This document shows positions 2,426 to 62,100 of a stretch of 64,000 nucleotides of DNA, in pieces. The notes beneath the pieces were generated by a model. The model was not told the origin of the DNA. It saw only the letters and a program-made list of their open reading frames with translations, and searched no databases. The stretch comes from Hormiphora californensis. Lineage: Eukaryota > Animalia > Ctenophora. A program made the translations under genes and the position numbers. The stretch is from NCBI GenBank assembly GCA_020137815.1, contig CM035350.1:5022001-5086000 (forward strand), given 5' to 3'. Every line of letters begins with the position of its first letter. Position 1 is the first letter of the stretch.

Positions 2426-2574
2426 TAGGTAACGTTTTGCCTTTGAGGGGGTCTTGGTCGGGTAGGTAACATTTTGCCTTTGAGAGGGTCTTGGTCTTGA
2501 AAATAGGTAACGTTTTGCCTTTGAGAGGGTCTTGGTCGGGTAGGTAACGTTTTGCCTTTGAGAGGGTCTTGGTC
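2426..2574. repeat. Four copies of a ~37-bp minisatellite
   Basis: taggtaacgttttgcctttgagagggtcttggtc repeated four times. Confidence 0.85.
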
Positions 2575-6000: not shown

Positions 6001-9000
6001 TTAGTGCTCCTTTATCAAACACGCAATGGCAAAGTACAAAGTTTCCCAAATTTAATTAAATGCGAAATTTCAAAGTTTTGGTCGATTTTGGCCAAAATTG
6101 CTGCCCTAAACTAATTATTGGACTGTGCGTTGCCGGGGAGACTGCTCGCTGGTGACTGAGAGATCATATGTTCTCGAATATTGGTATTTGAGGCGGATTT
6201 AAGTTGTATTTTAGTGAGGGGAAGAGCTAATATTGGACAAAAATGTTGCTGTAATTTAGTAATGGGACCAGGCCAGGCCCGAGAGACAGTTCAGTGGTAA
6301 CTGGGAGGTCATGTGTCATGGAAATGAGAACTAGAGGCAGATTTGAGTTACATTTTATTGAGGAAAATAGCCCTTTTTAGTGTCTGAGACAAGCAAAAGT
6401 GAAACGAAATGCAACGTAACGAACTAGTAATGAATAGAATTCTGCTCTGTGACTTGTTAGTGCTCCTTTATCAAACACGCAATGGCAAAGTACAAAGTTT
6501 CCCAAATTTAATTAAATGCGAAATTTCAAAGTTTTGGTCGATTTTGGCCAAAATTGCTGCCCTAAACTAATTATTGGACTGTGCGTTGCCGGGGAGACTG
6601 CTCGCTGGTGACTGAGAGATCATATGTTCTCGAATATTGGTATTTGAGGCGGATTTAAGTTGTATTTTAGTGAGGGGAAGAGCTAATATTGGACAAAAAT
6701 GTTGCTGTAATTTAGTAATGGGACCAGGCCAGGCCCGAGAGACAGTTCAGTGGTAACTGGGAGGTCATGTGTCATGGAAATGAGAACTAGAGGCAGATTT
6801 GAGTTACATTTTATTGAGGAAAATAGCCCTTTTTAGTGTCTGAGACAAGCAAAAGTGAAACGAAATGCAACGTAACGAACTAGTAATGAATAGAATTCTG
6901 CTCTGTGACTTGTTAGTGCTCCTTTATCAAACACGCAATGGCAAAGTACAAAGTTTCCCAAATTTAATTAAATGCGAAATTTCAAAGTTTTGGTCGATTT
7001 TGGCCAAAATTGCTGCCCTAAACTAATTATTGGACTGTGCGTTGCCGGGGAGACTGCTCGCTGGTGACTGAGAGATCATATGTTCTCGAATATTGGTATT
7101 TGAGGCGGATTTAAGTTGTATTTTAGTGAGGGGAAGAGCTAATATTGGACAAAAATGTTGCTGTAATTTAGTAATGGGACCAGGCCAGGCCCGAGAGACA
7201 GTTCAGTGGTAACTGGGAGGTCATGTGTCATGGAAATGAGAACTAGAGGCAGATTTGAGTTACATTTTATTGAGGAAAATAGCCCTTTTTAGTGTCTGAG
7301 ACAAGCAAAAGTGAAACGAAATGCAACGTAACGAACTAGTAATGAATAGAATTCTGCTCTGTGACTTGTTAGTGCTCCTTTATCAAACACGCAATGGCAA
7401 AGTACAAAGTTTCCCAAATTTAATTAAATGCGAAATTTCAAAGTTTTGGTCGATTTTGGCCAAAATTGCTGCCCTAAACTAATTATTGGACTGTGCGTTG
7501 CCGGGGAGACTGCTCGCTGGTGACTGAGAGATCATATGTTCTCGAATATTGGTATTTGAGGCGGATTTAAGTTGTATTTTAGTGAGGGGAAGAGCTAATA
7601 TTGGACAAAAATGTTGCTGTAATTTAGTAATGGGACCAGGCCAGGCCCGAGAGACAGTTCAGTGGTAACTGGGAGGTCATGTGTCATGGAAATGAGAACT
7701 AGAGGCAGATTTGAGTTACATTTTATTGAGGAAAATAGCCCTTTTTAGTGTCTGAGACAAGCAAAAGTGAAACGAAATGCAACGTAACGAACTAGTAATG
7801 AATAGAATTCTGCTCTGTGACTTGTTAGTGCTCCTTTATCAAACACGCAATGGCAAAGTACAAAGTTTCCCAAATTTAATTAAATGCGAAATTTCAAAGT
7901 TTTGGTCGATTTTGGCCAAAATTGCTGCCCTAAACTAATTATTGGACTGTGCGTTGCCGGGGAGACTGCTCGCTGGTGACTGAGAGATCATATGTTCTCG
8001 AATATTGGTATTTGAGGCGGATTTAAGTTGTATTTTAGTGAGGGGAAGAGCTAATATTGGACAAAAATGTTGCTGTAATTTAGTAATGGGACCAGGCCAG
8101 GCCCGAGAGACAGTTCAGTGGTAACTGGGAGGTCATGTGTCATGGAAATGAGAACTAGAGGCAGATTTGAGTTACATTTTATTGAGGAAAATAGCCCTTT
8201 TTAGTGTCTGAGACAAGCAAAAGTGAAACGAAATGCAACGTAACGAACTAGTAATGAATAGAATTCTGCTCTGTGACTTGTTAGTGCTCCTTTATCAAAC
8301 ACGCAATGGCAAAGTACAAAGTTTCCCAAATTTAATTAAATGCGAAATTTCAAAGTTTTGGTCGATTTTGGCCAAAATTGCTGCCCTAAACTAATTATTG
8401 GACTGTGCGTTGCCGGGGAGACTGCTCGCTGGTGACTGAGAGATCATATGTTCTCGAATATTGGTATTTGAGGCGGATTTAAGTTGTATTTTAGTGAGGG
8501 GAAGAGCTAATATTGGACAAAAATGTTGCTGTAATTTAGTAATGGGACCAGGCCAGGCCCGAGAGACAGTTCAGTGGTAACTGGGAGGTCATGTGTCATG
8601 GAAATGAGAACTAGAGGCAGATTTGAGTTACATTTTATTGAGGAAAATAGCCCTTTTTAGTGTCTGAGACAAGCAAAAGTGAAACGAAATGCAACGTAAC
8701 GAACTAGTAATGAATAGAATTCTGCTCTGTGACTTGTTAGTGCTCCTTTATCAAACACGCAATGGCAAAGTACAAAGTTTCCCAAATTTAATTAAATGCG
8801 AAATTTCAAAGTTTTGGTCGATTTTGGCCAAAATTGCTGCCCTAAACTAATTATTGGACTGTGCGTTGCCGGGGAGACTGCTCGCTGGTGACTGAGAGAT
8901 CATATGTTCTCGAATATTGGTATTTGAGGCGGATTTAAGTTGTATTTTAGTGAGGGGAAGAGCTAATATTGGACAAAAATGTTGCTGTAATTTAGTAATG

Positions 9001-9726
9001 GGACCAGGCCAGGCCCGAGAGACAGTTCAGTGGTAACTGGGAGGTCATGTGTCATGGAAATGAGAACTAGAGGCAGATTTGAGTTACATTTTATTGAGGA
9101 AAATAGCCCTTTTTAGTGTCTGAGACAAGCAAAAGTGAAACGAAATGCAACGTAACGAACTAGTAATGAATAGAATTCTGCTCTGTGACTTGTTAGTGCT
9201 CCTTTATCAAACACGCAATGGCAAAGTACAAAGTTTCCCAAATTTAATTAAATGCGAAATTTCAAAGTTTTGGTCGATTTTGGCCAAAATTGCTGCCCTA
9301 AACTAATTATTGGACTGTGCGTTGCCGGGGAGACTGCTCGCTGGTGACTGAGAGATCATATGTTCTCGAATATTGGTATTTGAGGCGGATTTAAGTTGTA
9401 TTTTAGTGAGGGGAAGAGCTAATATTGGACAAAAATGTTGCTGTAATTTAGTAATGGGACCAGGCCAGGCCCGAGAGACAGTTCAGTGGTAACTGGGAGG
9501 TCATGTGTCATGGAAATGAGAACTAGAGGCAGATTTGAGTTACATTTTATTGAGGAAAATAGCCCTTTTTAGTGTCTGAGACAAGCAAAAGTGAAACGAA
9601 ATGCAACGTAACGAACTAGTAATGAATAGAATTCTGCTCTGTGACTTGTTAGTGCTCCTTTATCAAACACGCAATGGCAAAGTACAAAGTTTCCCAAATT
9701 TAATTAAATGCGAAATTTCAAAGTTT
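3036..9726. repeat. Tandem array of 456-bp units, ~14.7 copies
   Basis: taatattggacaaaaatg recurs at 3036, 3492, 3948 and onward. Printed lines repeat every 2280 bp (5 x 456). I saw no differences between units and there are no variable spacers. Confidence 0.97.
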
Positions 9727-10741
9727 TAAAATTACGCGCACAGTGTAAAATTTTAAAATTCATTGAAAATTTCCTCGCGTTTTATGTCGCCAAAAAAAAG
9801 TCGACGAAAAATTCCAAATTCGTGAATTATAAGAACTCCGGTCAGTTCTCATCTTGCCAAACCGTTTTCCGGGAACCCCTGGCCAAAGGACATTAAAATT
9901 CACATACCGACCAAGTTTCATATCGATTGGATAAGATTTTGGGTGGCTACGGTGAAAAATATCGTATTTTTGGCATTTTTAACTTTCCCGACGCGATTTA
10001 CGACCCTTAAACATTGAGTTACGGGAAATCGCTATCAAGTAAAATGAAGTTCAAACGATTCTCTTTCCCCACTATTGCGTTAGTTTTTTGATTTAGAGCC
10101 GTTTTCAGGGTCTTAGAAGCGTTTGAAAAATGTAAGTCTTTTTGTCGCAATGACGTCACCCCGTGACGTCACTGCTGTAAAGATCGGATCAAAAATCTGA
10201 GCCCGTACTTACACCCGCCTTGGTCCAAAGTACCAGTGTACAAATTTTCAGGGGTCTAGCTCAAAAACTGTAGGAGGAGTAGGGAGAAAACAATTATCGG
10301 ACTAACATTTTGGAAATTATTATATGGATTTTGTATACACAGGAGAACTCAACAGTACTCAACAACAGGAGGATATTCTTTTAGAAATATAGTTTTTAAA
10401 TCTTCTTGAAATATAAACATTTTTAATGATTCCATATGAAAAGTCTTAGAATTACAGCAGAATTACAGCAGTTCACAAAGTACAGCCTCCTGCTACTGTT
10501 GGTGAACTTCATTACCCATGCCCAGGTTTTAAAAGTAACAAATCCCACCCAACAGTTTATCAGTATTCAATGTAACTTTACTTACTTGAACTTAAACATA
10601 TATCCCCTCTTGCGAAACACATATTTTATTGACATCTGCTGAACAACTAATATCACCAAATTTAGTAATGATCAATATCTTCCCCAGCAATATAGTACGT
10701 TTCGTTATGTGATAAACCAGTTCCCGAGGAGACATATCACC

Positions 10742-34768
<24,027 letters not shown>

Positions 34769-38890: not shown

Positions 38891-39346
38891 TTAGTACACA
38901 TGTGCATTCGCTGTCATCTCATAATCCATGACCTCGTCATCCCTGAACCACATCTTAATCTCTTCATTTGCACTGTCAACACTATCAGACCCGTGACAGA
39001 TGTTCCTACACATATCAATACAATAGTCTCCCCTGATAGAACCAGGTTTGGAGGCGAGAGGGTTAGTTTCACCCAGCATTGCACGACCCTGTTTCACAGC
39101 ATCTTTACCCTTCCAAGCCATTGAGACAACAGGGCCACTAGTCATAAAGTTGATCAGACCGGGGAAGAAAGGTTTCTTTTTCAGATCTCCGTAATGTTCC
39201 TCCAGCAACTCTCGGCTAGCCATCCTCATCTTAAGGGCAGTCAGCTGATAACCCCTCTTTTCAAACCTGGATATAATGTCCCCGACTAGTCCCCGCTGGA
39301 CCCCATCAGGTTTAACCATGATATACGTTTGTTCGTTGTTACTCAT
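38891..39346 (-). CDS. NME1: Nucleoside diphosphate kinase, group I (151 aa, intronless CDS)
   Basis: [39 protein letters not shown] with the catalytic His intact. The upstream 46 aa in the ORF track are probably not real. The symbol denotes the NME1/2 family. Confidence 0.95.
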
Positions 39347-40325
39347 CCCTGCATGAGATGCTGTTGCTAGAATGGAGGGTTGAGTTGTGAGGGATAGCAG
39401 GGCCAGGTTGTGTGATGTGTAGAGGGAGGCACACCAGTCATCAATAAGCGTGAACACCAAACGTTCTGGTATTCGCATATACAAGCAAAGAGGGAGATGA
39501 GAGAGAGAGAGAGAGAGAGCAAAGGTAAAACGGCAAACAGCAAATAAATGTGAGGAGTAGTGGGATATTGTGTGTGTGTGCGGGCTTTCACATGCAGGAA
39601 AAGTCTATCAGTGAACAAATAGAGCTTCCTACTACTGCTGCGGGATACTTCAAACGAAGAAGTGATGATAACGCTTAAATCTCAATATTGAAATTCTTTC
39701 TAGAACCATCTCTAACACCAGATTTGGTTCCAAGGAACTCCCACTGCCGTGTGCCAACACTGCACTTATCGTGTGGAAAATTAGGCAGTGTTCTAACCCT
39801 ACAAAGACAGACCCGAACACCTTATAAGTGAGCTATGCTCAAGACAATGACGCCTACGACAGACGGATACAACAGTACCACCTGAGCCAGGCGCCTTCGG
39901 GGCGCAGAGCGAGGTACAGTCGAACCAAACCAAACAAAACTTTTCTATCCGGCATTCACCCGGGCGGGGAAAATAGTGAGGTAGATACTGCAGGTGATTA
40001 TAATTCTCACCAGCAAATAGATCGAAAGCACGTGTGGGTATTTCACTGATTCTCTCATTACTGTGTACTGTAAACATGTACAGGTGCCCCTCTCTCGAAT
40101 TCTCTACAATCTTCGTCATGGCTTTCAGTTTCCACCCCCTTCTTTTCAATATCAATCATGCCTACAAAGAGGTAGTGTTCTTTTCACGTTCTTCAGTTTC
40201 TCTCTAACTCTTGTTTTCCTCTTGATCATTTCCTTTTGTTTCGCATCTCTCATCTACACCTTTGTTTAGCCATAAACTAAGAGACTCTAAATAGTCTTTC
40301 TCTCCCTCCTTCTCTCTCAGCTTCC

Positions 40326-44673: not shown

Positions 44674-47600
44674 ATGGGTAATTCAAGTGAAGCGAAGGCA
44701 TGTAACTCAGGGGAGTCATTTGAGGGGCTCAACATAACGAATATGTGTGACCGGGAATTAATTGATGTCCTAATCATGACGCTCATGTATCTGTTCATTG
44801 TCATTATCGGGTTAATCAGTAATGGATCCGTTATCCTGGCATCTATATTTGAAAGGTGAGCATCATGTTGTTATGGTAACCATATAGAAGTCATATGAGT
44901 TACATGATTTGTGTGTGACTGAGTTGTCCTGTAATTGTCGTTAGGATAACTAGGGGCATTTGTTACACTTTCCATATTTGGCTATTTCAGGCCATTATGA
45001 AAGAGCCCAAAGGTAAAACCACAATGGTCCATCCCATTACCAAGTGATTATATATTCCAGGTGGAAAGAGATTGATCAGTTTACGTTTGTAATGGCAGTA
45101 TCCCAAGCATTCTGTCACTTCCTCTTTGCCCTCCTTATCTACCCCATGGGCCTTGTCAGTGTACTCCAAAAATCAGGATGGACGTTAGGATCCTCGTGGT
45201 GAGTACATGCCCATATATGGTGGTTTAGTATGTCACGTGATGCCCGTATATAGTAATTGCTGCTGGTCATGTTTGTGTGTCGCACGTCCTGCAGCAGTTA
45301 GTATAGTAAGGCTTCATGTCTCTTTTTGATGCCTGCTCTAATGGTCTTGGCGCATGTCCTGAGCTGTGATGGACTCTCAAAATGACCTGTCAGGATACAC
45401 ACACAGACACAGACACTCCAGGTCTGTCCACAACATGATGACAGACACTCCAGGTAGACCACAACACGATGACAGACAGTGTTGAGAGAGTTCATGCTGC
45501 ACAGATCATGCTGCTCAGTGGCTATACCGTAGTACTACCAAACCAAACCAAACCAAACCACAGATCATGAAGAGAGTTGAACGTGACAACATTAAAAATA
45601 TAATCAGCTTGATTTACTGTCTACTACCGGCTTCCTTCTATCCCTGACAACCTTCTATCATGATATATCACTGACACCCTTCTATATCTCTAACACCAGC
45701 TTCTATAACTAACACCAGCTTCTATCACTAACACCCTTCTATCTCTAACACCCTTCTATATCCCTGACACCCTCCTATCACTAACACCCTTCTATCACTA
45801 ACACCCTCCTATCACTAACACCCTTCTATATCCCTGACACCCTCCTATCACTAACACCCTTCTATCACTAACACCCTCCTATCACTAACACCCTTCTATC
45901 CCCGACACCCTTCTATATCACTAACACCCTTCTATTACTAACCCCCCTTCTATCACTAACACCCTTCTATATCACTTACACCCTTCTATATTACTAACAC
46001 CCTTCTATATCACTAACACCCTTCTATAACTAACACCCTTCTATCATTAACACCCTTCTATCCGTGTCTCTATCTGCAGGTGTTGGCAGACGGCTCTACT
46101 TGGCAGTTACTTTGAGATCATGTACATTCTCCACATTATAATGCTGGGAGCTGATATTATCATTGGAAGATTCACAAAACTCAAGGACAGAGTCTTTGTA
46201 GCCCTCAGTAAGCAGGTCAGTTCATTTAGTGAGAGTTTTGTTGTTTATCATGAGCATCGCGTGGCACTGTATGCAGGCACTTCAAGCTCCGTTATGGGAG
46301 GTTACACAGGGCTGTGACTGGAAGTTCCTTTCTGTGCAACATGTGTCTAATAATTTTTTACCCTTTTCAATATGTCCCCTGCAGGTGGCTCTATTCCTAT
46401 GGCTGGTGGCCCTTCTGCCCCAGATATTTGTGGCGCTGAACCGGAGTCGGTCCAACAATGTCTTTGGGTATTTCGAGGACACCAGCGGCAACAAGATGTG
46501 TTACGCTACCTATATGTACCCTGACTGGAATGTATGTGACAGACAAACAAAGAATTTAGAGAAGATGGTTGTGTACCATCATGATAGTCTCAAGATTCTC
46601 TTTGGGATCTTGCCAAGACTTCGGCTCATTTTGCTTGATGAGCGGCAGGAATATTTCTGCAGTTTTTGTGGTATTGGCCTATTTTTACCGGGACCAACAG
46701 TGAACATTGATTTAAATTAATTGAGTGAAAAAGGGTTACATGAACAAAGAGAATGAATGAAGAATTGAGAGAATAAATGATAGAGGGGATAAATAAAAGA
46801 TAGAGAGGGGATATAGAAAAGAGATTACGGGTTCTTATGAATAGCCACACTTGCACATTATATACACAATAAAACAGTGCCAAATTCCTCGCACTGTATG
46901 CTGTTTTTACCATCACCCATTGTAACCGCGATATAATTGATAAACTAATATTATTTCAGCACTGTAACAGCCGTGTTAATTGATTTATTGATCCCCCCTC
47001 TCTCTTCAGGAATTTGGAAAGTACGTTGCGATATTCATCTTCATTCCAGTTGCGTGCAGTGTTACCCAATACGTCTTCCTTCTTTACCGATCTAACAAGA
47101 AAAATGTAAGAATTAACTACATATGTAACAGGAACCGACCGAATCAGGAAATACTGGTCCTTGATTGGCTGATAACCAGTCACGTGACCTAAATAACGAG
47201 TTCTGATTGGTTGTTTACTTGTTTCGGTCGGTTCTTGATATGTAATGTGTCAATTGTAAATATATCTTCCCAGCTCGTATTATAGGTGTGTTTGTGTATG
47301 TGTGTCTGTACAACTTCGTTTTTTTTTCAGTGATAGATGGTATATTGAGGGGTACAAACAATTGATAATTAGGGTAGCCACTGGCTATTTGAAACAGTTT
47401 TTCACTTTTTTCCCTTGCCTGCCCACAAATCAAGTCGAACCCAAATTTTTTTGACCTTGTGTTACCGAGACAGTCCCTGGGTAGTTTTTTGGGTGGTTGG
47501 AGATGTCTCATTTTGTCTTCCGGGGCCAGGGTCACGTGATATCTATCCAAATTTGGTGTTTCAGATAGCCCACCTCGGTCTGCTAATTTGAAACACCCGT

Positions 47601-49710
47601 ATCTCCCTCAATTTTTCCACGAAACCGAAATTTTTGACATGGAATAGTTAGAAAAGGGTTGTGCAGAGCCATTCCATGTCTGAAATCTGAATTTGTTTGC
47701 ATGTGCTTGGTGCAGTGAATGTTTCCAAAAATTGTTTCAAATAGCCAGGAAAACAGTTTTTGCCCCAAATTCGGCCAATTTTTGGCGGAAATGGCTAAAC
47801 TCATAATTCATATCCTCCCTATGCCCAAAATGAACATCAAAAATTTCCGACAGCGGATTTGGAGAAAAGTGTTTCAAATAGCCCTCCGCAGTGTTTCAAG
47901 TTACCAGACTCGCTTGCCCTGCAGCTCATAACATAGCGAAAACCACTGAACCCGACTAATTTCGATACGCTGAATCACGTAAGCAACTTTTCCAATCCGT
48001 ATGAGGTCGATAAAGTGCCCTAATTGAGTATAATTGGGTCTAATTGACCTTAATTGCTCAATTAAGGCATTTTCCCGACCTCTGAGGGATTGGAAAGGTT
48101 GCTTACGTGATTCAGCGTATAAAAATTAGTCGGAAAAGTGCCCTCACATAAGTATAAATCATTTCCAGGTGAAAAGTTGTAAATGGGGTAAATAAGACCC
48201 AATTATGCTTAATTAGAACACTTTTCCGATCTGAGACGGAGCCCAGAGGTTTAAAAAAGCTATTTATAATTATATTTAAGTTTCTCAATTTTCATTTTTT
48301 GAAATAAAGAGGAAATCTTTGAATTTTTTGTTTAAACACAAGGATTGTTTCTATTCCAGAATTTAAAACAACGGCATGAGTACCTACTGTTTGCTATGCA
48401 TCTCCCAAGACAAGCTACTACATACGCGGCACTACGTTTCAAATAGCCAGACCATGCGTTTCAAATAGTCAGACACTGTTTCACATTGGCAGGCGTTTCA
48501 AATAGCCAGTGGCTACCCTACTCACTTCATCACCAATATATTACATGTAGAATCATCTGGGGACTCAACATTTGTCAAACTGATTTGGCAAATCGTCTAT
48601 TTACTCAATATTCTTTACTCGCTTATATTCGCTCTCTTTTTCAGAGTAATGCAAATGATCCCGGTAAGGGAAATAAGAACAGGAGTTTTTGGATGAATTA
48701 CAGGACATCATTCATCATGATATTTCTCTATGCCATATCCCAGTTCCCCCGCTGGATATACATCTTCCTTACCATAGCCATTGCCACCAACGAAATAAGT
48801 GAGTGCAGTAAAGTAGATCTAAATTAAAGTATAAAATTAAATTAAATTAAAGTATTATCCTAAACTCATTGTCAGAGTTTTTATTATTCTCAAACTTTTC
48901 AACACTACTTTAAACAAATTAATTTGAGCCTGATGAAGAGGTAGATCCTCGAAACTTGTTGTGACAATTATACACGTCTGTTTCATTCGTTCAGCCCAGA
49001 GAGAATAATAAAAACTCTGACAATAAAACATGAGGCTAATCCTAAACTCAAATACAATATCCATACACGGTCGCTTGTAGTGGGAAAACGGTAATGGAAA
49101 ACTGAGATACAGTAAGACGACGTGCAACCGTGGCCAATCAGGGCGCTAGTACGTGCTGAACACATGCACTTTTTGCCGTGCGTTATGCAACGTGCGCATC
49201 TCATTACTGTATTTCTATTACGGTAATACGACTACAAGCAGCACTGTAATACAAAGATCGCTTCTGTCTAGATGATGTTTGGTTTATTTGAATCACCGGC
49301 CCCAACTAACCCCGCTGTGTTTTACAGGCTTGAAACCTGATTACCGGGTAGCCGATTTCATAGTAGTGTGGTCTAGTTTTGGAAGTATTCTTATACCCTT
49401 TGGATACCTTGTTACCTGTCCCACTTACTTCAATCAGGTACACGATCGGTGCAGTGGGATCAGAGCAGGAACCGACCGAATCAGGAAATACTGGTCCCTG
49501 ATTGGCTGATAACCAATCACGTGACCTAAATAACGAGTGCTGATTGGTTGTTTACTTGTTTCGGTCGGTTCCTGGATCAGAGTTTCCCAGAGTTGTGGTT
49601 CATAATTGTCGGGCTTCGAAATATTATTATTCTAGGTTCCCAGAATATACAGCCCCATATTTGACCGTTTTAGAGTGCATATAATAAATACAAGACCATA
49701 TTCTAGCTAG
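44674..49710 (+). CDS. Divergent class A (rhodopsin-like) GPCR, ~8 exons
   Basis: TM1 GLISN (44674-44855); TM2 plus WTLGSSWC (45061-45198); TM3 (46080-~46214); TM4 and ECL2 Cys (46385-46531); TM5 (47011-47105); TM6 QFP (~48645-48799); TM7 IPFGY (49329-49437); probable last exon 49636-49710. Introns have GT-AG boundaries. Confidence 0.8.
45640..46061. repeat. Intronic ~17-19-bp minisatellite
   Basis: Variants of cacccttctatcactaa. Confidence 0.9.
47129..47237. mobile_element. 109-bp hAT MITE, copy 2
   Basis: Same sequence as 31458-31566; perfect 8-bp TSD atatgtaa. Confidence 0.9.
47370..48520. mobile_element. Non-autonomous TIR element (~1.15 kb)
   Basis: tagggtagccactggctatttgaaac / gtttcaaatagccagtggctacccta; subterminal gtttcaaatagcc repeats; no 8-bp TSD seen. 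Confidence 0.8.
48890..48928 (+). other. Genomic copy of the ctenophore spliced leader exon, not followed by a GT donor
   Basis: tcaaacttttcaacactactttaaacaaattaatttgag matches the ctenophore SL as I recall it (..TTTCAAACTTTTCAACACTACTTTAAACAAATTAATTTGAG). The next bases are cctg. Confidence 0.85.
48929..48988 (+). ncRNA. Minimal type I hammerhead ribozyme core (probably impaired)
   Basis: CTGATGA at 48930-48936; stem II gagg/cctc; GAAA; stem III cttgt/acacg with one mismatch; GTC cleavage triplet at 48976-48978. Confidence 0.65.
49466..49574. mobile_element. 109-bp hAT MITE, copy 3
   Basis: Same family; perfect 8-bp TSD gatcagag. Confidence 0.9.
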
Positions 49711-50248
49711 TGCAGTATAATACCTCTCAGCAGCTCTGCACAGCTACATAATAGGTGACAATTGCTCAGCTGCATGGTCTATTTAAGAACCGCTAATGCA
49801 CGCTCGTATGTGAGAAAGACGTTCGAACCTAAAATATCTGGGCTCTAAGTACGTTCATAATATGGTCATTAAGTACCTAGATACTTGCATCAATATATAG
49901 CCATTCTACTCGAATAATGCTCTACCCACTCGCCACACTGTAATTATAGCGACTAAGCTGATATGGGTTTGTATCTCATGTGGTCTAATTTCAGTAGCTC
50001 GACTGGAAACCACACATTTTACCATGTATACTAGTATGCTAGTGGTGTTTCCTTCCCCGTAATACGGGCGGGGGACACGGCGGGTCTCATTCAGACAACT
50101 GTAATCATCTCCTTGCCATGGTACACAGTCTGTCGTTTGCGCGATGAATATCGCCTCCGACGCTCGGCCTGTGAGAGCCGACAGACTGGGAACAATCAAT
50201 CCGCTCCAGCTGTTAGAGAACAATCCATGACCTTCCGTCGGATGCAGT

Positions 50249-51197
50249 TTGCGAATACAAAGTACACAGAAACATTCACACGCCTACCTAGGTTACCGAG
50301 CGCTCCGAAAGCACTGGTGGAGTTGTGGGGAAGATGAACCCATGAGCAGAAAGGATAAGCTGTACTGCCGAATGATCGAGAAGGAGTTCTACCAGTCCTG
50401 TACTGTTAACGACATGCAGAGTCCCAAGATAGATTGTGGGGTGAACTGTAGGGATGGAGTCTGCTACAAGATGTATGGAGAGAATCTGAAGGTTCCTGCT
50501 GGTACCACGGTTTGGTCGGAAAACGAAAAATATGCCATTGTCGCTCAGGTAACCTATACTATAAGATCTGAATTCTGATAAGTGATATAAGCAATCGCAA
50601 TTCTCTCAATCAAATGAATATTTTACCGCTATTTTTATTGATCATCCATTACAGACAGATGACAATGTGGTCCTTTACTGTAAGGGAGGAATACCCAACT
50701 GGCACACTGACACTTGGGACGAGGGGAATGATGGGTTTGAGATAACCAGCGATGGGGAGCTGGTTGTTTACGGAAGATTCAAGGACTATAAAAGTGGAAC
50801 CAAAGGTAATTTCCATACAACTGTGTTGGTGACGCAGTCACCCTTACAACTCGCACGCCAAAACGAAGCCCGCGTCGCCACCAAACAACTGTGAAGTAAA
50901 CACTTGGCGCCTTGGTAATTGTTCCACTGGAGTAGGTACATTAAATGACCGTCATATAGCCGACAGTGCATCTAGTTGACCGACGTGCAAATGAGCACTG
51001 CACTGAATGGTCAGAGTTTAAATTACTACAATTACTACAGATAAATAATCCCCTTCTTTTCAGCTGGGTACTCGCCTAGTGGACCGGGTATCAACCAGTT
51101 TTCTCTGACTGTTGAAAACGATGGTAACATGGTTATCAGGGATTTCAGAACAGATCAATTGGTCTGGGAGGTGGGAAGCGAGAGGGGAGACTGCTAA
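50249..51197 (+). CDS. Bulb-type (GNA-like, B-lectin) domain protein; 5' end unresolved
   Basis: WSENEKYAIVAQ|TDDNVVLY matches QxDxNxVxY; ITSDGELVVY and LTVENDGNMVIRD..LVW follow. Exons run to 50548, 50655-50805 and 51064-51197. Confidence 0.7.
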
Positions 51198-51663: not shown

Positions 51664-51802
51664 AAGTAAGTACACAGCTCTTTTCTGGGACCTTGGTAAC
51701 TCGGGGCAGCTGAAATGGGTCATGCACGGGAGCTCACTAGTTTATATTTCGTCTTAGTGGTGAAAACGGAGATACGGTAAGAAGACGTAATTCCATTGCG
51801 GT

Positions 51803-51940
51803 AATTACACGACAGTTACCCAATAATTACACGAAAATTACCCAATAATTACACGAAAATTACCCAATAAGTACACGACAGTTACCCAATAATTACACGA
51901 CAAATACCCAATAATTACACGACAATTACACGACAGTTAC
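51803..51940. repeat. ~22-bp minisatellite
   Basis: Variants of aattacacgacagttacccaat. Confidence 0.85.
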
Positions 51941-51944
51941 TCAC

Positions 51945-54900
51945 CCGTGTCCACTTAAGCGATCCCCCGCAGTAAGAGATCATTCGTTGGAGAGTCTCTA
52001 TTGCATATACTGCATCTCCAACACAGTATATGTGAACCGCTGCTTTTATACGGGATAGAGCCGCTCCTAAACTGAAGAAGGATATACAAGGTGGGCCACG
52101 GATTGTTGGTAAGGGTTAGCGAGTTGTCCTGTCAAAACGGTGATAGTTGCGAGAATAAAAATCATGGGAGCACTCTGGATTAATTTCTTGGTAACTTTTT
52201 CCATAATTTTTTGTCAAAAATTCGAAAATTCATTTTTCATTCCTTCATTCATTTCTCGTTCATTTATGATGTGAGCATCCTAATTTTCCATCATGGTGCT
52301 ATTTTTCTTTGGCTTGAATTTATCTTTCCAATGAACACCATAAAAATGAAATTGAAGCACCAGGTCACGTTGCAGTTGAGAAAATGCTCATGCATGATTT
52401 TGGCTCTTCCTGCGAATTTCAATGAGCTGTATCACGGCTCCCTTTTGTTCAATCTTTTTCAAAATTTGGGTGAACATTGGATAAACAAAGATCTTTGCTC
52501 ACAAGAAAAATCAAGGTCAAAACTCAAAGTTCATTTTTTATTTTTGGTAGTTCATTCCACTCATTCAGGAACTAACATCCCTAAAGTCATGAAAAGTTTT
52601 GGGTTTTGTTTGGCCTATGCTCTGCAATGCCAGAGAGGTGTAGTAGCGTGTTTCCGGGCTAGTTTTTGGGTGTCCATGTGATCATGATGATACCTGACAC
52701 CTTATTTGGGCCATAATTAAGAGATTTTCTCAAGTTGAAGCATGTGACTTGGGTTTTCTGTGATTGATATCGTGAAACAATGTTATGGGATCCCATAGCA
52801 CCCCTAAAATGATGATTAATTCAACAAAATGAGTTGATTTATGATCGAAATTGTTTGTTTAGTTGAGTTTGTCTTCGGTTTAAATCTTTTCGATCATAAA
52901 TCAACTCATTTTGTTGAATTAATCATCATTTTAGGGGTGCTATGGGATCCCATAACATTGTTTCACGATATCAATCACAGAAAACCCAAGTCACATGCTT
53001 CAACTTGAGAAAATCTCTTAATTATGGCCCAAATAAGGTGTCAGGTATCATCATGATCACATGGACACCCAAAAACTAGCCCGGAAACACGCTACTACAC
53101 CTCTCTGGCATTGCAGAGCATAGGCCAAACAAAACCCAAAACTTTTCATGACTTTAGGGATGTTAGTTCCTGAATGAGTGGAATGAACTACCAAAAATAA
53201 AAAATGAACTTTGAGTTTTGACCTTGATTTTTCTTGTGAGCAAAGATCTTTGTTTATCCAATGTTCACCCAAATTTTGAAAAAGATTGAACAAAAGGGAG
53301 CCGTGATACAGCTCACTGAAAGTCGCAGGAAGAGCCAAAATCATGCATGAGCATTTTCTCAACTGCAACGTGACCTGGTGCTTCAATTTCATTTTTACGG
53401 TGTTCATTGGAAAGATAAATTCAAGCCAAAGAAAAATAGCACCATGATGGAAAATTAGGATGCTCACATCATAAATGAACGAGAAATGAATGAAGGAATG
53501 AAAAATGAATTTTCGAATTTTTGACAAAAAATTATGGAAAAAGCTACCAAGAAATTGATCCAGAGTGCTCCCATGATTTTTATTCTCGCAACTATCACCG
53601 TTTTGACGGGACAACTCGCTAACCCTTACCAACAATCCGTGGCCCACCTTGTATATTGAGACGTATGAATATAAGGTTGGGATCAGAGAGCGAACAAAAG
53701 TTAAAAACTCTCCCCGGTTGAAGACTTTCTAAAGTCATTGTATTACAAGAACTGCATATATTTACCTAGAAAAGTATTGTTTTTGTTGTTCCATTTGAAG
53801 GGCACTGGGTAACGTTGAGGAGTGTAGCTCTCCTCCTGTGAATATTATAATATGCTTCACTGCACCATCTACCTGAAGGATAAAGTTTAGTATGTTGTAT
53901 TGATGGGAATGGGATGGGAATGGTTGTGTGATGTGTGTCGTTGCTGCCAACGTCCACCGCTCACATGACAAGTCCGATCAGTCCACCTCCCCGTGGTCCA
54001 TCCTGGGTCATGCTAAGAGACTGAGGGGCAATGCGGCGTGTCGTGCTAGCAACTCGTCACGCTTTAAAATCTTGCTACGAATCTCTCGGTGTCCTCCTCA
54101 AATTTGGCGTCGGTGAAAGCTGGCAAGCACCTTATTCCGGACAGCGAGGTTAGGGTGACCAGAGGACGGGAGGAGGGTAAAGCTGGGTCAGGTGATTCGG
54201 GGCCCTCCGACCTGATGGGAGTCTCGGATCTGGTGTCATTCAATCGCAGAGTTATTTCTGGCCAACACATCCCTGGTGTGGCCGCTCCGGGTTCTTTTAG
54301 TTCCTTTAGTTCTTTTAAGCCAATTAATGCAGTCCGTAATCATTTTCATCTGGCAACTTGGAATGTTTTATCTCTACAGTCATCATCCTCTAAGTTGTAC
54401 GAATTATCAAACGCAGTTTCATCTTTCCAACTTGACGTTTTGCTTCTCACAGAAACGCACTGGCCTGGTACGGAGGTTATGACCCTGGATAACGGGCATC
54501 TTTTTATTAACTCTGGCAGGGCAGATGGTTTGAGGCGGCAAGGTGTTGGGTTGGTGTTATCAAAATCTGTCAAGAAGTCCTTAATTTCCTACAGTCCCTT
54601 CTCTGAGCGCATCATGGCAGCCCGACTGCACACCAAACATGTTAATATCTCCCTTGTTATTGCATATGCTCCAACCAATGATAAGGATGACGCGGTCAAG
54701 GAGGAGTTCTACAACCAGTTATCATCGGTTTTGGATAGGCTTCCTCGGCAGGACGTGGTCTTCTTGGGCGGGGATTTCAACGCGAGGGTTGGTGGCGGGC
54801 ACTCTCTCCACCAAGTTTCTAATGACAACGGTGAGCGGTTGGAGGATTTGTGTGGGATTCATCAGTTGTCTATTGGTGCGAAGATGTTCCCTCATAGGGA

Positions 54901-57900
54901 TCACCACAAGGGAACCTGGAGATCTCCTGACGGTACCACTGTGACGCAGATAGACCATCTGTGTGTCGGCAACAAGTGGCGAAGTTCTCTGTTGGATGTT
55001 AGGGTCCTAAGGAGTGCAGACATCGGGTCTGATCACTACCTGGTTCGGGGTAAGGTTAGGATCCGGCTGAGTGCAGCTAAGAACTGTAGGAAACCGGTCA
55101 GGGAGGTTCCAGCTATAGAGAATCTCAGGAAGGGGTGTGATGAGACACGCACGGAATACAATGTCTCTCTCCGGAACAGGTTTGAATCTCTGGAGCCTGA
55201 GGAAAGTCTGGAGGGTCAGTGGCGGCAAGTTAAGGAGGTAATCGGTGAGGTGTCACTGGAGGTCCTGGGAGCGCGGCCGAAACGGATTCGTCAGCAGCAC
55301 TTGTCTCTGGAGACTCGAGACCTCATCGCCCAACGTGCTGAGCTGAAGAAGAATGATCCCGAGGGTGGATCTGAGTACTCTAGGCTTAATAAGCTGGTCA
55401 AGAAAGCAGCACGGGTGGACGATGAAAGGTGGGCGGATAGTTTGGCGTCTGATCTGGAGGATGCTGCGGTGCACGGGCGGCAGAGGGAACTTTGGCAGCA
55501 TATGAAAGATCTGTCAGGTGTGAGGAAACGCGGCGGTACTGCTGTTCGTGATAGGAACGGTGAACTCATCGCTGATCCTGTTCAACAGCGGGAGCGCTGG
55601 GCGGAGCACTTCTCTGAGCTGCTAAACCCCCCTGTAACTACATCACAGCTCTCGGATCTGGATGGTCTGGAGGTGGACCCGTGCTTTGAGGATCTTGGTG
55701 AGGATGATCCTCCGCCTTCTCGTGGAGAAGTTTTAGTGGCACTGAACAGGCTCAAAAACCATAAGAGTCCTGGCGTTGATGGGATCTCGAACGAACAGCT
55801 ACGGTATGGCTCGTCCGGTCTTGTTGGCCCCCTTGTGGACCTGTTTGGTGGAGTCTGGAGGGAGGAGAAGGTCCCGGAGGAGTGGTTAAAGGGTGTCATC
55901 TCGGTGATTCCCAAGAAGGGTGACGCCAGTGTGTGCTCAAATAATAGGGGCATCACTCTGCGATCTACCACTTCCAAGCTGTTCCAGATAATTATGCTGA
56001 ACAGGTTGTCTTCTGGTCTTGAATTGGCACTTCGAGAGAATCAGTGTGGATTCAGACGTAACCGGTCTTGTGTGGATCAGATTTATTCCCTCCGTACCAT
56101 CATCCATCAGTGTATAGAATATAATTTACCGTTGTATATAAACTTTATTGACTTCAAATCAGCATTTGATTGTATTAACAGGGATTTTATCTGGGCCGCA
56201 TTTCGCCATTATGGTCTTCCAGAGAAGTATGTCCGGATAATTCGAGCATTCTTTGACGGTACTGTGAGTGCAGTGAAACATGACGGAGAGCTCTCCAGCT
56301 GGTTCAGTGTCCTCAGTGGTACCGGTCAGGGCGACATTCAGGGTCCACCAGTCTTCAACATCGTGATTAACTGGGCGGCTCAGCTTGCTGAGTCCAACAA
56401 GACTGTCTCCAGGGGTCTCACTCTTCACGGCGCTGAGAGTGATGAGGGTGGGGAATGGATCATGGATCTCGACTATGCTGATGACATGGCTGTAATGGAT
56501 GATACTGAGGAAGGGCTCCAGGAGTCAACAGATTTGCTGGTAAAATACGCAGGGTACGCTGGTCTGAAGATTAATGCGAAGAAGACCAAAGTTGTGGCTT
56601 TTTCAAAGGGTCTTAGCCAGCGCCCATTTTCAGAGGCGGATACGGTCAGCATCTCTGTGGAGGGTAATCCGGTTGAGCAGGTTTCCAGTTTTACCTATCT
56701 CGGATCGGCGTTGTCCTCTGACGGTACCATCGACAAGGAGCTTGGTATCAGGATAGGGAAGGCTTACAGTGCATTCAGTATGCTTTGTAGGATCTGGTAC
56801 AACCGTAACATCAGGACCTGTACCAAGATCAGGATATACAGAGCTGCTGTTCTGACAGTTCTTCTCTATGGTTGTGAGGCCTGGACAACTACTCAGGTCC
56901 AAGATCGCCGGGTGGAGGCGTTCCACCAACGGTGCCTGCGTAGAATCCTGAGAATACAGTGGTTTAGGAGAGTATCTAACAGGGAGGTACTGGAGAGGGC
57001 GGGGATAGAACCAATCTCGAACTTCATTGGCAATGGGAGACTCCGCTGGTTTGGACACCTGATTAGAATGCCTGAGGGTAGGGTGCCCAACAAACTCTAC
57101 CACTGGGTGCCTAGTCATGGGAGACGTTCCAGAGGAAGACCGCGTAAAACCTGGTCCTCCTGTGTGCTGAATGATTATCGAGACGCTACGGGTCAATCCC
57201 AGTCTCTCCGTGCAATTACTAACACTGCAGAGAACAGAAATGAGTGGAGACAGCTCACGTCATTACGAGCGAGGATACTTGGAGCCGGCCACTCGAATGA
57301 TTGAGGAGACCGTACCAAGTATCAAGTAAGTAAGTAGTAATTCTGATAAGTTTTCAAAATTTTACTTTACTGGTTCATTTCATTTGATAAGAGGGGTGTG
57401 ATGATATATGTGGTGTTTAGTGAAATTAGTTCAAAGAGGGTTGAGCAAGGCAAGCTCTGTGATGGCTCGCCAGAGCGCCAGAGCAAGAATTCCCTACCTG
57501 AGCGAGTTTGAGAAAGGTAACCAGCATCTCGAATGTGAACCCAAAACATTTTCCATCTCCCTTGTTGACCCTCTTCTGCCTCAAAAACGGGGTATTTCCC
57601 CCTGACATGGCCTTGTCCTTTCTCATCAGACCGGTAGATATATCTCCCAGTATCTCCAGGAGTCTGGCCCGGGATGTTGATATTTCACAGATCATCTCAT
57701 TCCAGTGGGCTGTTAGGAACGGCAGAAGATCCTTTGACATAGAACCTGGGGGGGGGGGGGGGGGAATGGGGTAATATTCCTAATTCCAGTGAAGAATATT
57801 GACATTTTATCAAATATCCAGTACCGATTAAACCCCCTCCCTAACTTATGGATCTTTATTACCTGATAGGACTTCAGTTTCGATAATACCTCCCGGGGAT

Positions 57901-58608
57901 TTCCTAGACAACATGTAGACATTAATAACGCTACTCATTAAAAACATGCACACTCTCGTCCCATCCTCTGCTTCCGTAACTGTTCTGAGAGAGATGGGGC
58001 GGTGGTAGAAATTAAATGGGGAAGAAAGGGCGAGAAAATGTATGAGAAATAGTGATCAGCAATTACCTTGATATGGCATTAAAAATGTGCAACTTTTCTT
58101 TCGTAGACAAAAAATCATCTACGATAAAGATGATGACTTGGGAGAGAGATCCAACACCCTTGTCGAGGATTGTATACGTCTCCCCTGAGGCTACACTCTG
58201 TGGAATTACCTCTCCTGTCAGCAAGGTATTATCTGGAGAGATATAGGGATTAGCTGTGCCAGTTGTTTGGTTTAAAGAGGGAGATTCAGATTGTCGACTG
58301 TTGAGCATCATCGATGATGCCCTACTATTTTTCCTATATGAAAACTTACTTTCCCTACAGAAGACACATTTCCAAACATCCTCAATAAGTTGGCAGTGCT
58401 TGTTGTAGTACGATTTACAAGCGGTACATCTTATAGCCCTGGTGACGTCTCCCTCCCCACTCCCAGCAGGTCGGACGGGGTCAAAGAGGAATCCAAAGGG
58501 TACATGACACGCCTCGCCAACTGTGGCGGAGGCCGGGAGGAGCTTACAAGATGGTTGGACAGGAATGGTAGTTTTTACATCGTGATCTAGCCCATCCACT
58601 ATTACCAT
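51945..58608 (-). CDS. Divergent Sec23/Sec24-family protein (zinc finger + vWA trunk); 3' end not located
   Basis: Exon 58608-58067 RCTACKSYYN..WKCVFC and IIFIVD; exons ~57985-57862, 57745-57497, 53872-53766 (HIIIFTGG) and 52071-51945 (AVHIYCVG..SYCGG) splice in frame and follow the Sec23 trunk order. Confidence 0.7.
52087..53651. mobile_element. Foldback-type palindromic element with TA flanks
   Basis: 764-bp arms (52087-52850, 52888-53651) with about 6 mismatches and a 37-bp spacer; termini caaggtgggcc / ggcccaccttg. Confidence 0.9.
53911..54024 (+). ncRNA. HDV-like self-cleaving ribozyme at the LINE 5' end
   Basis: P1 gggatgg/ccatcct with a G1-U wobble; P2 tcagtc/gactga; P3 acc/ggt; L3 tccccgt; P1.1 cc/gg; catalytic C in ctaa at 54013. 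Confidence 0.88.
54089..57304 (+). CDS. RTE LINE ORF: AP endonuclease + reverse transcriptase (1071 aa, intact)
   Basis: EN motifs TWNV, ETHW, GDFNA, IDH and SDH; RT motifs DFKSAFD, QG and YADD; RTE-type C-terminus RWFGH..RSRGRPRKTW. Confidence 0.96.
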   Translation: MSSSNLASVKAGKHLIPDSEVRVTRGREEGKAGSGDSGPSDLMGVSDLVSFNRRVISGQHIPGVAAPGSFSSFSSFKPINAVRNHFHLATWNVLSLQSSSSKLYELSNAVSSFQLDVLLLTETHWPGTEVMTLDNGHLFINSGRADGLRRQGVGLVLSKSVKKSLISYSPFSERIMAARLHTKHVNISLVIAYAPTNDKDDAVKEEFYNQLSSVLDRLPRQDVVFLGGDFNARVGGGHSLHQVSNDNGERLEDLCGIHQLSIGAKMFPHRDHHKGTWRSPDGTTVTQIDHLCVGNKWRSSLLDVRVLRSADIGSDHYLVRGKVRIRLSAAKNCRKPVREVPAIENLRKGCDETRTEYNVSLRNRFESLEPEESLEGQWRQVKEVIGEVSLEVLGARPKRIRQQHLSLETRDLIAQRAELKKNDPEGGSEYSRLNKLVKKAARVDDERWADSLASDLEDAAVHGRQRELWQHMKDLSGVRKRGGTAVRDRNGELIADPVQQRERWAEHFSELLNPPVTTSQLSDLDGLEVDPCFEDLGEDDPPPSRGEVLVALNRLKNHKSPGVDGISNEQLRYGSSGLVGPLVDLFGGVWREEKVPEEWLKGVISVIPKKGDASVCSNNRGITLRSTTSKLFQIIMLNRLSSGLELALRENQCGFRRNRSCVDQIYSLRTIIHQCIEYNLPLYINFIDFKSAFDCINRDFIWAAFRHYGLPEKYVRIIRAFFDGTVSAVKHDGELSSWFSVLSGTGQGDIQGPPVFNIVINWAAQLAESNKTVSRGLTLHGAESDEGGEWIMDLDYADDMAVMDDTEEGLQESTDLLVKYAGYAGLKINAKKTKVVAFSKGLSQRPFSEADTVSISVEGNPVEQVSSFTYLGSALSSDGTIDKELGIRIGKAYSAFSMLCRIWYNRNIRTCTKIRIYRAAVLTVLLYGCEAWTTTQVQDRRVEAFHQRCLRRILRIQWFRRVSNREVLERAGIEPISNFIGNGRLRWFGHLIRMPEGRVPNKLYHWVPSHGRRSRGRPRKTWSSCVLNDYRDATGQSQSLRAITNTAENRNEWRQLTSLRARILGAGHSND

Positions 58609-58679
58609 GCTAAATTGTAGAGAGGGAGTGAGAGAGAGTGAGTTAGAGGACGATAGAGAGAGAGAGAGAGAGAGAGATA

Positions 58680-58741
<62 letters not shown>

Positions 58742-59128
58742 AACGTATGTTGATTGTTGAGGGGTTCTTGTTGGTGTGGTGGCTGGCCTAGATGTGTGAG
58801 AACTGTGTGATTGTACACACAGACAATGTTACATCACAGAAAACGCGCGGTTCGAAACACAAGAAGTGTTCTGCGCGCTACACACAAGCACACCAAAATC
58901 CGCCCTGAATCCAACTTTGGCTAATTGACATTCAACATTGTCAACTTAAACAAATTTGACAAATTGATCTGTTTTTTATACCCTGTACAGCATAATCAAT
59001 ACTCAACACTGTCGCACACACACACAAAACGGAATTTTAAAAGAAGGCAAACATCGGACTCCTGACTCTCCTAGGAGCCAGAAAGGGGTTGGGGAGTGAG
59101 AATTAAAAAAAACACCATATCCTTGACA

Positions 59129-62100
59129 TCACAGTGTGTTAATATCTCCCATAATTCTCACTGGGCGACCCTTGTACCGAATGCTAAGGTGCTTTTCAAC
59201 ACATCCCTTGAGCTCCTTTGTGACCTGTGATGGCCCGTTTCAGTTTCGGTTCAACGTCCTCATACGTCTTCTCGGCTTCAACAACTCGTTCTTTTAACTC
59301 AGCAATAGTTTCCTAGAGATTATGCTGATCGTTATTGTATGTTCAAACGAATTATTAACAAATATTTGTATATTTTCTCTCTCTCTCTCTCTCCTTCTCT
59401 CCCGCCCACTTCCCCTGTCACTCTCTGATCGCAGTGAGTAATTAGGCCCATAGCGAGGTGTCATACACACACTCAACCAGACAGACAAACAAACAAATGG
59501 TACAAATAAACATTTCCGGATTTAGTTCAAACCTGCATCTTGTCAGAGAGACGTAGTTGTGACTGGAGATTATCACCCAACCTATCCAGATATTTCTCAC
59601 TGTTTTTTAATAGCAGCAAGTGTCTCATTTTATCACATGTTAGTTGATTGAGGGGAGAGTCAACGGCCGCCAACATCTTACCAACACCCACAAGTTGTGC
59701 TGTTTGTATCTCTGGGGGACCTGGCGAATAATTAGCGATTAATTATGTACAATAATTAGCGATTAATTATGTACAATAATTATAACATACTGGGACGATT
59801 ATGCGAGATAAAACAATAACACTTACAGTCAGGTATTTCACTGAGTATACTCTCAGTGTCTCGTCCCATTTCCTCACACCGTGCTGACAGGAAGGCAGAC
59901 AGCTCATACAACTCATCAATAATCTTATTTCTAGTAACAGTGTTGTCAAGTAGAGTTTGGTTCTTGTTCTCTTCGCCTGCCTCAAGAAGATCTATCTCAA
60001 TACCTCCCTCATCTCCAAAATCAATATCTCCTGGGAATTAAAATTATTTTGGTTTTGATTTGTTAAGTTTTTGGGGATCAGAAAGGGTGATGCACTGTGA
60101 GGCAGTACACGTCACGCAGTGTAACGTGCGGACTCCTTTCATCACCTCCCCGTCAAACCGTGAAGGTTCATTAACTTAATCTTAACTGGTAGAGGGGTTA
60201 GTTTTGGGATCAGATATTTGGAATAGAAACAATCCTTGTGTTTTACTCTACCCACCATAATCGACAGTTTCTTCTCCGAAATCAATGTCCGTTCCAAAAT
60301 CGATTGTGTCAATACCAAAGTCAATGTCATCGGGTGATTCATTTCCGATGGTTGTGGCAATTTCAGGAAGTGTTGGTTCCGGATCAGTTTCAATATGTCT
60401 GAAGGAGAAATAAAAATGGTTTAGAATTGCGGATATTCTCGAAAATATCATCTTTACTTACTCGTGATGATCGGTTGTAACGTACACACACCCATTCTTA
60501 TCCTGCGTCTCAATTGGATCAATTACCTCCACACTACTTTCACTGTCGCTACTCTCTGTGATAGAAGCCGAGTTTTATGAAGGAGCATATAAATATGTAA
60601 TTATGAAGGAGTAATAAATATTTATAAAGGAACACATAATATTTATAAAGGAGCATATAAATATTTATGAAGGAGCACACATATCAAACTGTTATGTGTG
60701 CTCCTTCACAAATTATATGTTATTTACAGTTACTTACCCATCGGGACTCCTGGGTTTTCCCACTGGGACACAGCTGTGTTTCCGTGCTTAACAAAATACG
60801 TCAAAATAGGACACACTTCCATATTGGGGTTGTTAATCAAAAATCGAACAAATGTCTGAAAAATGATTATCAGCAGATCTAAAAACGTCTGAGAAAGTTC
60901 ATTTTTGCATTGACCAATTATGAACTACTTATCAAGCTCATTACAATGTTTGTACCTGGTAGTAGGAGATGGCAGGCTGAATGTGACCTAAACTCCGTGA
61001 AATTTCCGTCATGAGATAGGGAATATCCAAAACCAACCCAGACAACTCGGACTTGATATGATCACCAACTATCCCAATCTCTGCACATTTCTCCCGGTAC
61101 TTAGCTTCATATTTGGTGATGTTGTTAGAACAATCCGCCTGTTTCTTCACACTATCTTGTTTAACCTGAGTTGCCCTGAAAATGTAGTGCTCCTTTATAA
61201 AACTGTCAAATGATGTACCTGAGTTCAGTGCTCCTTCATAAAACCAGCTGTCCTCCCACACCCACATAGTGGTGGGAGAGAAAGGAAACAGCAGGTGGTA
61301 TATTTACTCAAAGTTGCACCATTCAATCTAGTCACACGACAACTAGTCTTTATGTCGCTCTCTCACAATCCTTACTGACTTCCATCCTATTTTCCAGCGT
61401 GTTATAACTCTATTGTGTTTGAAAGCCTGGGTCCTACCCTCGCACTTCATCATCCTAGGAGCCTAACGTAATCTCGCTAAAATGCCGCAACAATATCGTC
61501 TTACCAAACCATAAAATCTCGGCTCTAGTACACCACTGAGTTCTAGATGCTTTAGCACGATATTATTCTGAGCTCGTAAAAATAGTGGACGCGACCAAAG
61601 CTGACTTGCATTAGCTTGCCTTGCTGGATCCTCTCTCAGTGCGCCCTTTACAAATATTTCAAAGGAGGGTAAGAGGGTTAGAACATAACAAGCATTAGCC
61701 AGAACGCCCAGATTTACTTATTTTAATCACACTACTAATGGTATGATTATTTCGTGGGACACAATAGGAGAGCTATATTGTCTTGCTCGACCCTCTTGTA
61801 CAGAGCTATCCTCTGTGTGTCTATTTTCATCATTCTCAACTCCATCTATATCTAATTTTCTCCGACTTAATTCTGAGCTGCCACCTGATTTCACGTCTCC
61901 GTTCCATGTGTTCCACTATTATATCAACTGCCATGATGATTCGTTACCAGATCTAGTAAAGAATTGTATCTGCAGGTACAATTCCTACCACGTCAGTATC
62001 AGCTCCGACTCACTACGAGCTGTCCGTACCAGTTAACACTATTTACCTTGCGATTTGCTTCTTGAATAGTGGGACATCATATTTAACGTTCTGTGTCAGG

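Follow-up and report, generated by a model that had tools for sequence, protein, structure and literature searches.

Features of the locus

The window, that is, the whole stretch of 64,000 nucleotides of Hormiphora californensis DNA that was analysed, carries a 170-bp insert bracketed by two copies of a 12-mer (48857-48868 and 49039-49050). Within the bracketed region lies a perfect 24-nt inverted pair (48868-48891 and 49001-49024, 100% complementary), the left arm of which has one base in common with the flanking 12-mer and two with the spliced leader behind it. The coordinates given in a preliminary description of this DNA for the 12-mers, the 170-bp insert and the inverted pair were all reproduced from the sequence.

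Outside evidence was taken from four of the 22 listed sequencing runs (X1, X5, X7 and X12, runs with a small share being left out), which were compared over 48500-49400; the figures from this comparison refer to the 40 of 70 variants, 12 of 13 indels, 23 of 391 loose ends and 32 of 10,011 pieces that were listed. Run X1 derives from organism A, possibly the window's own source, and is hence not independent, X5 is another sample of organism A, X7 derives from organism B, and X12 is one RNA run, a metatranscriptome. The features, with the evidence for each in brackets, are as follows (TSD, target-site duplication; PLE, Penelope-like element).

48799-49327, plus strand: host intron containing the insert in sense orientation (RNA contig 9 of X12 joins 48798 to 49328; GT/AG ends)
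48852-48856, no strand: left half of a 5-bp inverted repeat with its partner at 49051-49055, symmetric around the target 12-mer (noticed post hoc)
48857-48868, no strand: left TSD copy, 12 bp (single copy in the empty alleles of X1 and X5)
48868-48891, minus strand: inverted arm of 24 nt, a copy of 49001-49024 without the tail (100% complementary; junctions)
48890-48928, plus strand: last 39 of the 44 nt of the ctenophore spliced leader, with no GT donor behind (by-eye match to the published leader; RNA contigs of X12)
48929-48970, plus strand: predicted minimal type I hammerhead motif of the PLE type (descriptor match; features compared with PMC4209133)
48971-49024, plus strand: remaining element leader, a putative 5' UTR (variant table of the sample runs)
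49025-49038, plus strand: one-sided tail of 14 nt (ends of the inverted pair; the X7 copy extends to 49040)
49039-49050, no strand: right TSD copy, 12 bp (sequence; empty alleles)

The hexamer AATAAA occurs at 49007 and 49022, but no poly(A) follows it; its reading as a polyadenylation signal was rejected for that reason, and it is taken instead as part of an A-rich leader. Neither poly(A) nor a simple-repeat tail stands at the 3' junction of the insert, unlike in a processed copy made by a LINE. The tail contains an ATG at 49030, the sole other ATG of the insert opening a three-codon upstream frame at 48933, and by comparison with the insertions of PMC3846280 the tail ATG may mark where the parent ORF starts. 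By a rough estimate, the recurrence of 7 nt within the insert (48962-68 and 49018-24) was put down to chance. No second copy of the family was found in the window, and no tandem array over the insert locus.

Target-site duplication and empty alleles

The window has 61 places with a direct repeat of 12 nt at a spacing of 50-300 bp, many of them within tandem repeats, so the repeated 12-mer proves nothing by itself and the proof lies in the empty alleles. In X1, one contig (depth 143.8) joins 48846 to 49039 with five letters between them and retains one 12-mer; in X5, a contig joining 48866 to 49252 likewise retains one 12-mer and lacks both the insert and the neighbouring inverted-repeat element. 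The 12-bp repeat is thus a true TSD, no older than the insertion, as the preliminary description had proposed, and the insert is polymorphic. Organism B (X7) joins 48809 to 49316, which amounts to a much shorter intron. Run X1 also holds a filled-allele contig over the left junction (window positions 48785-48902), the depth of which, 78.7, is under half that of the flanks of the same haplotype (175-188); hairpin-related loss or a mosaic insertion is a possible cause.

The target is AT-rich, with a context of 20% GC, and its symmetric 5-bp flanks contain ATT, an observation from one site only. Inverted 5-bp flanks around a 12-mer are found at 90 of 63,978 window positions and at 14 of 3,347 in AT-rich context (0.4%), the symmetry having been noticed post hoc.

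The host exons (48648-48798 and 49328-49437) encode hydrophobic, membrane-protein-like stretches with no Pfam match. The genomic leader, being sense-oriented and ending in AG, could be a cryptic acceptor within the host intron. At 13 bp to the right of the insert lies a very high-copy inverted-repeat element (49064-49248) with 37-nt arms of 73% complementarity and TA at both ends; absent from the X5 allele, it looks like a TA-targeting miniature DNA transposon. A long imperfect hairpin at 47987-48096, with a sub-threshold microRNA match, is probably another miniature inverted-repeat element.

The spliced leader

Positions 48890-48928 correspond to nucleotides 6-44 of the published 44-nt leader of H. 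californensis (39/39 by eye), the first five being missing (PMC8527503), and the 39-mer given in the preliminary description is confirmed as the leader of this species. The bases that follow are CC, not GT, and then CTGATGA-A-GAGG/CCTC-GAAA; the lack of a GT donor had been noted correctly. The locus does not have the form of an SL RNA gene: neither the donor nor a GT-bearing remainder of an SL RNA stands behind the leader. No second leader is present in the window, where the next best match has 13 mismatches, and a 29-mer of the leader gave no match in viral contigs and none in prokaryote genomes. A search of metagenome contigs for a pattern of leader end plus hammerhead core returned 53 loci, all with at least 12 mismatches to the 39-mer; the pattern was too loose, and these matches were discarded as chance.

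Among the RNA contigs of X12, contigs 11 and 12 start in the leader and continue into different sequences, the adapter abutting the leader. No contig of this one RNA run bears the leader-hammerhead junction; the run has no cover at 48965-49057 and is uninformative on expression. According to PMC8527503, the leader is found on 56% of Iso-Seq reads, and 718 genomic leader copies are present in H. californensis and 491 in M. leidyi, the passage on these counts giving no origin for them. In Hydra, around 30% of transposable-element transcripts carry a leader, i.e., are trans-spliced (PMC12220107).

The hammerhead motif

A descriptor modelled on the minimal hammerhead of PLEs (PMC4209133), composed after the site had been seen, matched once in the window and not at all in 7.68 million strand-bases of Markov-resampled sequence, while a looser hammerhead descriptor matched three times in the window. 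The parts of the motif are C3 at 48930, an extra A at 48937, a 4-bp helix II (48938-41/48947-50) closed by G10.1-C11.1, the GAAA box at 48951-54, and C15.2-G16.2 around a 2-nt loop 3 (UU), with predicted cleavage after GUU at 48958-60 and the 3' strand of helix I running from 48961. The motif thereby has the core boxes, the extra base between positions 9 and 10.1, the G10.1-C11.1 pair, an NUH triplet and paired positions 1.1-2.1 that mark the minimal PLE form. In helix I, G48961 pairs with C48929 and U48962 with the last G of the leader; five distal helix I pairs are possible between leader bases 48920-24 and 48966-70, on the far side of a 3-by-3 internal loop, although a five-pair run of this kind is available at 203 of 6,215 comparable window positions (3%) and is hence only suggestive. 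A palindromic 15.2-loop 3-16.2 segment was not found: C15.2 and G16.2 match, but the UU loop would leave two U-U pairs in a dimer.

Rfam returned no hammerhead at E<=5 over 47000-51000, with two sub-threshold matches elsewhere, and the segment 48915-48975 folds no better than its shuffles (z +1.03). In the predicted monomer fold, helix I does not form (pair probability 0.0), and the GAAA box is sequestered by a competing helix (48951-55/48980-84, probability 0.95), one pair of which would be broken by the majority letter of the other copies at 48981. The ribozyme call is therefore a prediction from the core motif, to which the thermodynamic fold adds no support. As regards compensatory changes among copies, no variant between 48929 and 48965 appears among the 40 of 70 variant and 12 of 13 indel rows listed, and the three majority variants fall beyond the core.

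The cleavage triplet is likely to be GUU (48958-60) rather than the GTC (48976-78) chosen in the preliminary description. In the GTC register, helix III would be longer (5/6 pairs), but no helix I forms: there is no pair at 2.1-1.1 or 2.2-1.2, C standing opposite U and then G opposite G, and the C left unpaired in this register, C48929, is not derived from the leader. The junction of leader and element does fall inside helix I, as had been proposed. The accompanying suggestion that the leader switches cleavage off by swapping one strand of stem I loses its basis, since in the GUU register the terminal G of the leader and the C after it still pair with the strand behind the triplet.

Other copies of the family

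Relative to unique flank, depth over the hammerhead and tail is 31-151x in X1 and 22-146x in X5, and over the leader around 2,000-2,400x; these are depths and not copy numbers. At 48974, 48981 and 48991 the window copy has a letter not shared by most other copies, the alternative letter being carried by 8-30 contigs per run. Contig 26 of X7 (organism B) matches 48906-49040 with eight other letters and three gaps, behind unrelated upstream sequence. The fusion of leader, hammerhead and tail therefore recurs in another copy, from another organism, and elevated depth, variants in many contigs and this X7 copy together dispose of the possibility that the hammerhead segment is single-copy.

Eleven further X7 contigs diverge after 48929 into a noisy consensus (agreement 0.52) that reads TGACGA, one base, G...CGAAAC and GTC, apparently a different hammerhead-like core directly behind the leader; such consensus strings are weaker evidence than the empty alleles. 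Another 21 X7 contigs diverge at the leader end into diverse sequence, the consensus having no initial GT. On the 5' side of the leader, 22-27 contigs per run in X1, X5 and X7 have diverse flanks (agreement 0.42-0.46), and their consensus ends in the five published bases that the window copy lacks. These flanks, again known as consensus strings and not as alignments, are what would be expected of dispersed full-length leader copies.

Run X5 also holds further inverted or rearranged copies, with joints at 48885-49000 and 48928-48966. The latter, between opposite strands, is an inverted rearrangement with its breakpoint exactly at the leader 3' end. At a loose end before 48901 in X7, two contigs (agreement 0.63) place a hammerhead-like core just upstream of the leader, its GTC overlapping the first leader bases; they could be partial tandems of leader-hammerhead units.

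Proposed origin of the insert

The polymorphic, TSD-flanked insert probably arose when a Penelope-like reverse transcriptase-endonuclease copied the trans-spliced 5' end of the element's own RNA. The earlier proposal of a leader-bearing RNA retro-inserted with Penelope-style ends is supported by the TSD with its empty alleles, the inverted arm, the one-sided tail and the missing poly(A). We infer that the element RNA was trans-spliced, that the enzyme was that of a PLE, and that both strands were primed.

Under this proposal, the host leader would be joined to the element pre-mRNA at a splice acceptor marking the 5' end of helix I of the hammerhead. The leader and the acceptor both end in AG, so the two proximal pairs of helix I would survive trans-splicing and the distal helix alone would change. 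The enzyme would cut both strands of the symmetric AT-rich site 12 nt apart and start internal priming from two closely spaced positions about the start codon. The first cDNA would start at around 49038-40 and extend to within 5 nt of the leader 5' end, while the second would start at 49024 and end after 24 nt; the inverted arm would be this second cDNA, primed from the top-strand nick by analogy with PMC11167929. Head-to-head joining of the two at a 2-nt microhomology would complete the insert. A minimal hammerhead depends on a dimer or on protein, and the copied RNA would accordingly have been uncleaved. If a leader-capped RNA is primed internally close to the start codon, the product is exactly a leader followed by a 5' UTR.

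Much of this scheme has published counterparts. In insertions of PLEs, a truncated arm lies alongside in inverted orientation, the tail is on one side, the TSD measures 8-9 bp, and the ORF start falls within pLTR plus tail (PMC3846280, PMC8557442). In purified form, a PLE protein cleaves AT-rich DNA on both strands with a preference for ATT, takes uncleaved RNA as template, and starts synthesis from two neighbouring internal positions close to the ORF start, the spacing of which sets the tail (PMC11167929). Minimal PLE hammerheads are marked by an additional base ahead of 10.1, the pair G10.1-C11.1 and a short helix III; Penelope of D. virilis has a cis-intron whose end coincides with the 5' end of a 2-bp helix I, so that two forms of the ribozyme arise (PMC4209133).

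The present insert has in common with PLE insertions the short inverted arm on the 5' side, the tail at one end, the TSD, an AT-rich target with ATT, a hammerhead near the start codon, and an apparently uncleaved template. It is unlike them in that its direct arm opens with a host spliced leader, in that promoter, intron and ORF are absent, and in the length of its tail, 14-16 nt compared with the 30-40 nt described. With metazoan PLE hammerheads, above all that of D. virilis Penelope, it shares the extra base, G10.1-C11.1, the tiny helix III, the 2-bp proximal helix I and a splice junction at the helix I 5' end; by contrast with D. virilis Penelope, the junction would be made by a trans-spliced leader instead of a cis exon, and it is the spliced form that was inserted. 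Loop 3 is not palindromic here, unlike in PLE hammerheads, and helix II has 4 bp compared with 6-8. No RT/GIY-YIG parent ORF was found by Pfam in 134 scanned frames of the window, the only retroelement ORF there being that of an APE-type LINE. The insert works like a PLE leader insertion and is a candidate member of a PLE family.

Rather unlikely, yet the strongest of the alternatives, is that the leader is fixed in the DNA of a small non-autonomous family, leader-headed and SINE-like or retrozyme-like, which captured it once, begets copies from copies, and is moved by a PLE; the terminal AG of the genomic leader would possibly be the acceptor for a fresh capped leader in each cycle. The occurrence of the same fusion in two organisms speaks for such a family, as does a leader part that is 39/39 identical in a copy which otherwise differs from most copies at three places, and among the run contigs listed no leader-free copy with an AG acceptor was seen. 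The five distal helix I pairs that the leader can add point the same way, with the frequency of such runs given above. Against it, repeated trans-splicing accounts more simply for a second hammerhead family behind the leader, and the tail ends just past an ATG, like the leader of a coding element. GAG is also a rare acceptor in most eukaryotes, which counts further against it. A fixed-leader family could itself go back to an ancestral event of trans-splicing.

Template switching or RNA ligation, in which the reverse transcriptase jumped from element RNA that was not itself trans-spliced to a leader-bearing RNA (the SL RNA or any mRNA), would be an event like that behind U6-L1 chimeras. In its favour, the inverted arm shows cDNA ends joined at short microhomologies, and leader-bearing RNA is abundant, as the Iso-Seq share reported in PMC8527503 indicates. 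It is nevertheless highly improbable, given that the junction falls at the exact leader 3' end, with no donor or mRNA bases, in both the window copy and the X7 copy, and that the hammerhead core of the second family also stands 0-1 base behind the leader. Lower still is the likelihood of the alternative raised in the preliminary description, a hammerhead element inserting site-specifically at genomic leader exon ends in the manner of CRE and NeSL: leader-targeting retrotransposons do exist (PMC3636483), and the hammerheads lie at a constant distance from the leader end, but the TSD encloses the leader, the empty alleles hold none, and the downstream sequence shows no GT-bearing remainder of an SL RNA gene. 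Site-specific insertion could only describe an earlier event.

Relation to other systems

The metazoan non-LTR retrozymes (PMC7229834; bioRxiv 10.64898/2026.07.22.740005) resemble the insert in being small, non-coding and low in GC, in having a type I hammerhead and a long TSD, and in being thought to be mobilised by PLEs. The insert differs from them in having a minimal and not a canonical hammerhead, a 5' end that is the leader and not the cleavage site, and no tandem repeat; the retrozyme hallmark of tandem 150-450 bp units with canonical type I hammerheads was not found at the locus, which holds a single unit. Dinoflagellate retrogenes with spliced-leader relics (PMC5585692) likewise have a genomic leader that marks the copy of a processed RNA; those are copies of host mRNAs, whereas here the non-coding front end of a ribozyme-bearing mobile element was copied, without poly(A). 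In CRE/SLACS and NeSL (PMC3636483), retroelement sequence also lies next to a spliced leader, the difference being that those elements insert into leader genes while here the leader travels inside the TSD.

No description of a spliced leader fused to a hammerhead or a PLE was found in the largely open-access literature searched. The earlier remark that no description of either arrangement was known needs qualifying, a cis-splice acceptor at the helix I 5' end being described for D. virilis Penelope (PMC4209133). Each ingredient has a precedent, the dinoflagellate leader relics included; for the combination, none was found in that literature.

Possible significance

The spliced leader is added to sense pre-mRNA only. 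For that reason, a genomic Penelope-type copy starting with the leader would tag the template used in vivo as sense, spliced, capped and uncleaved. An antisense template has been proposed to explain intron retention, the point being left open (PMC3846280); priming on supplied sense-region templates was shown in vitro (PMC11167929). Hundreds of such copies would map the transcript starts, priming sites and cut geometry of a poorly understood transposition cycle. They are also a possible source for some of the leader copies, 718 in H. californensis and 491 in M. leidyi, by which gene annotation in these genomes is misled.

A broader extrapolation, which we regard as speculative and unlikely, is that several ctenophore Penelope families put a trans-splice acceptor inside helix I, with the leader supplying one strand, such that the ribozyme would be assembled from two separately encoded RNAs and be active only after capping; leader-headed copies would then be a self-renewing class of small elements, to which much of the unexplained genomic leader copies, hundreds in number, would belong.

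Other features of the window

A single-frame gene for a 970-aa ionotropic glutamate receptor (19825-22740, minus strand; Pfam ANF_receptor and Lig_chan) sits between opposite-strand exons for SH3/WW (10643-11722) and PH/RhoGAP (31121-34765) domains and is likely to be a nested intronic gene. The minus strand also carries a nucleoside diphosphate kinase frame (38894-39604), a Sec23/Sec24 zinc-finger frame (58066-58833) and CDK5RAP3 exons (59783-61303). An open frame of 1077 aa with APE-endonuclease and RT (54068-57304, plus strand) appears to be an intact LINE ORF. Around 8 kb of steady positive GC skew (0.22-0.26) extends over 2001-10600, where no frame stays open for 75 aa from 2720 to 10594, and minisatellites with 17-nt and 22-nt units lie at 45666-46062 and 51802-51929.
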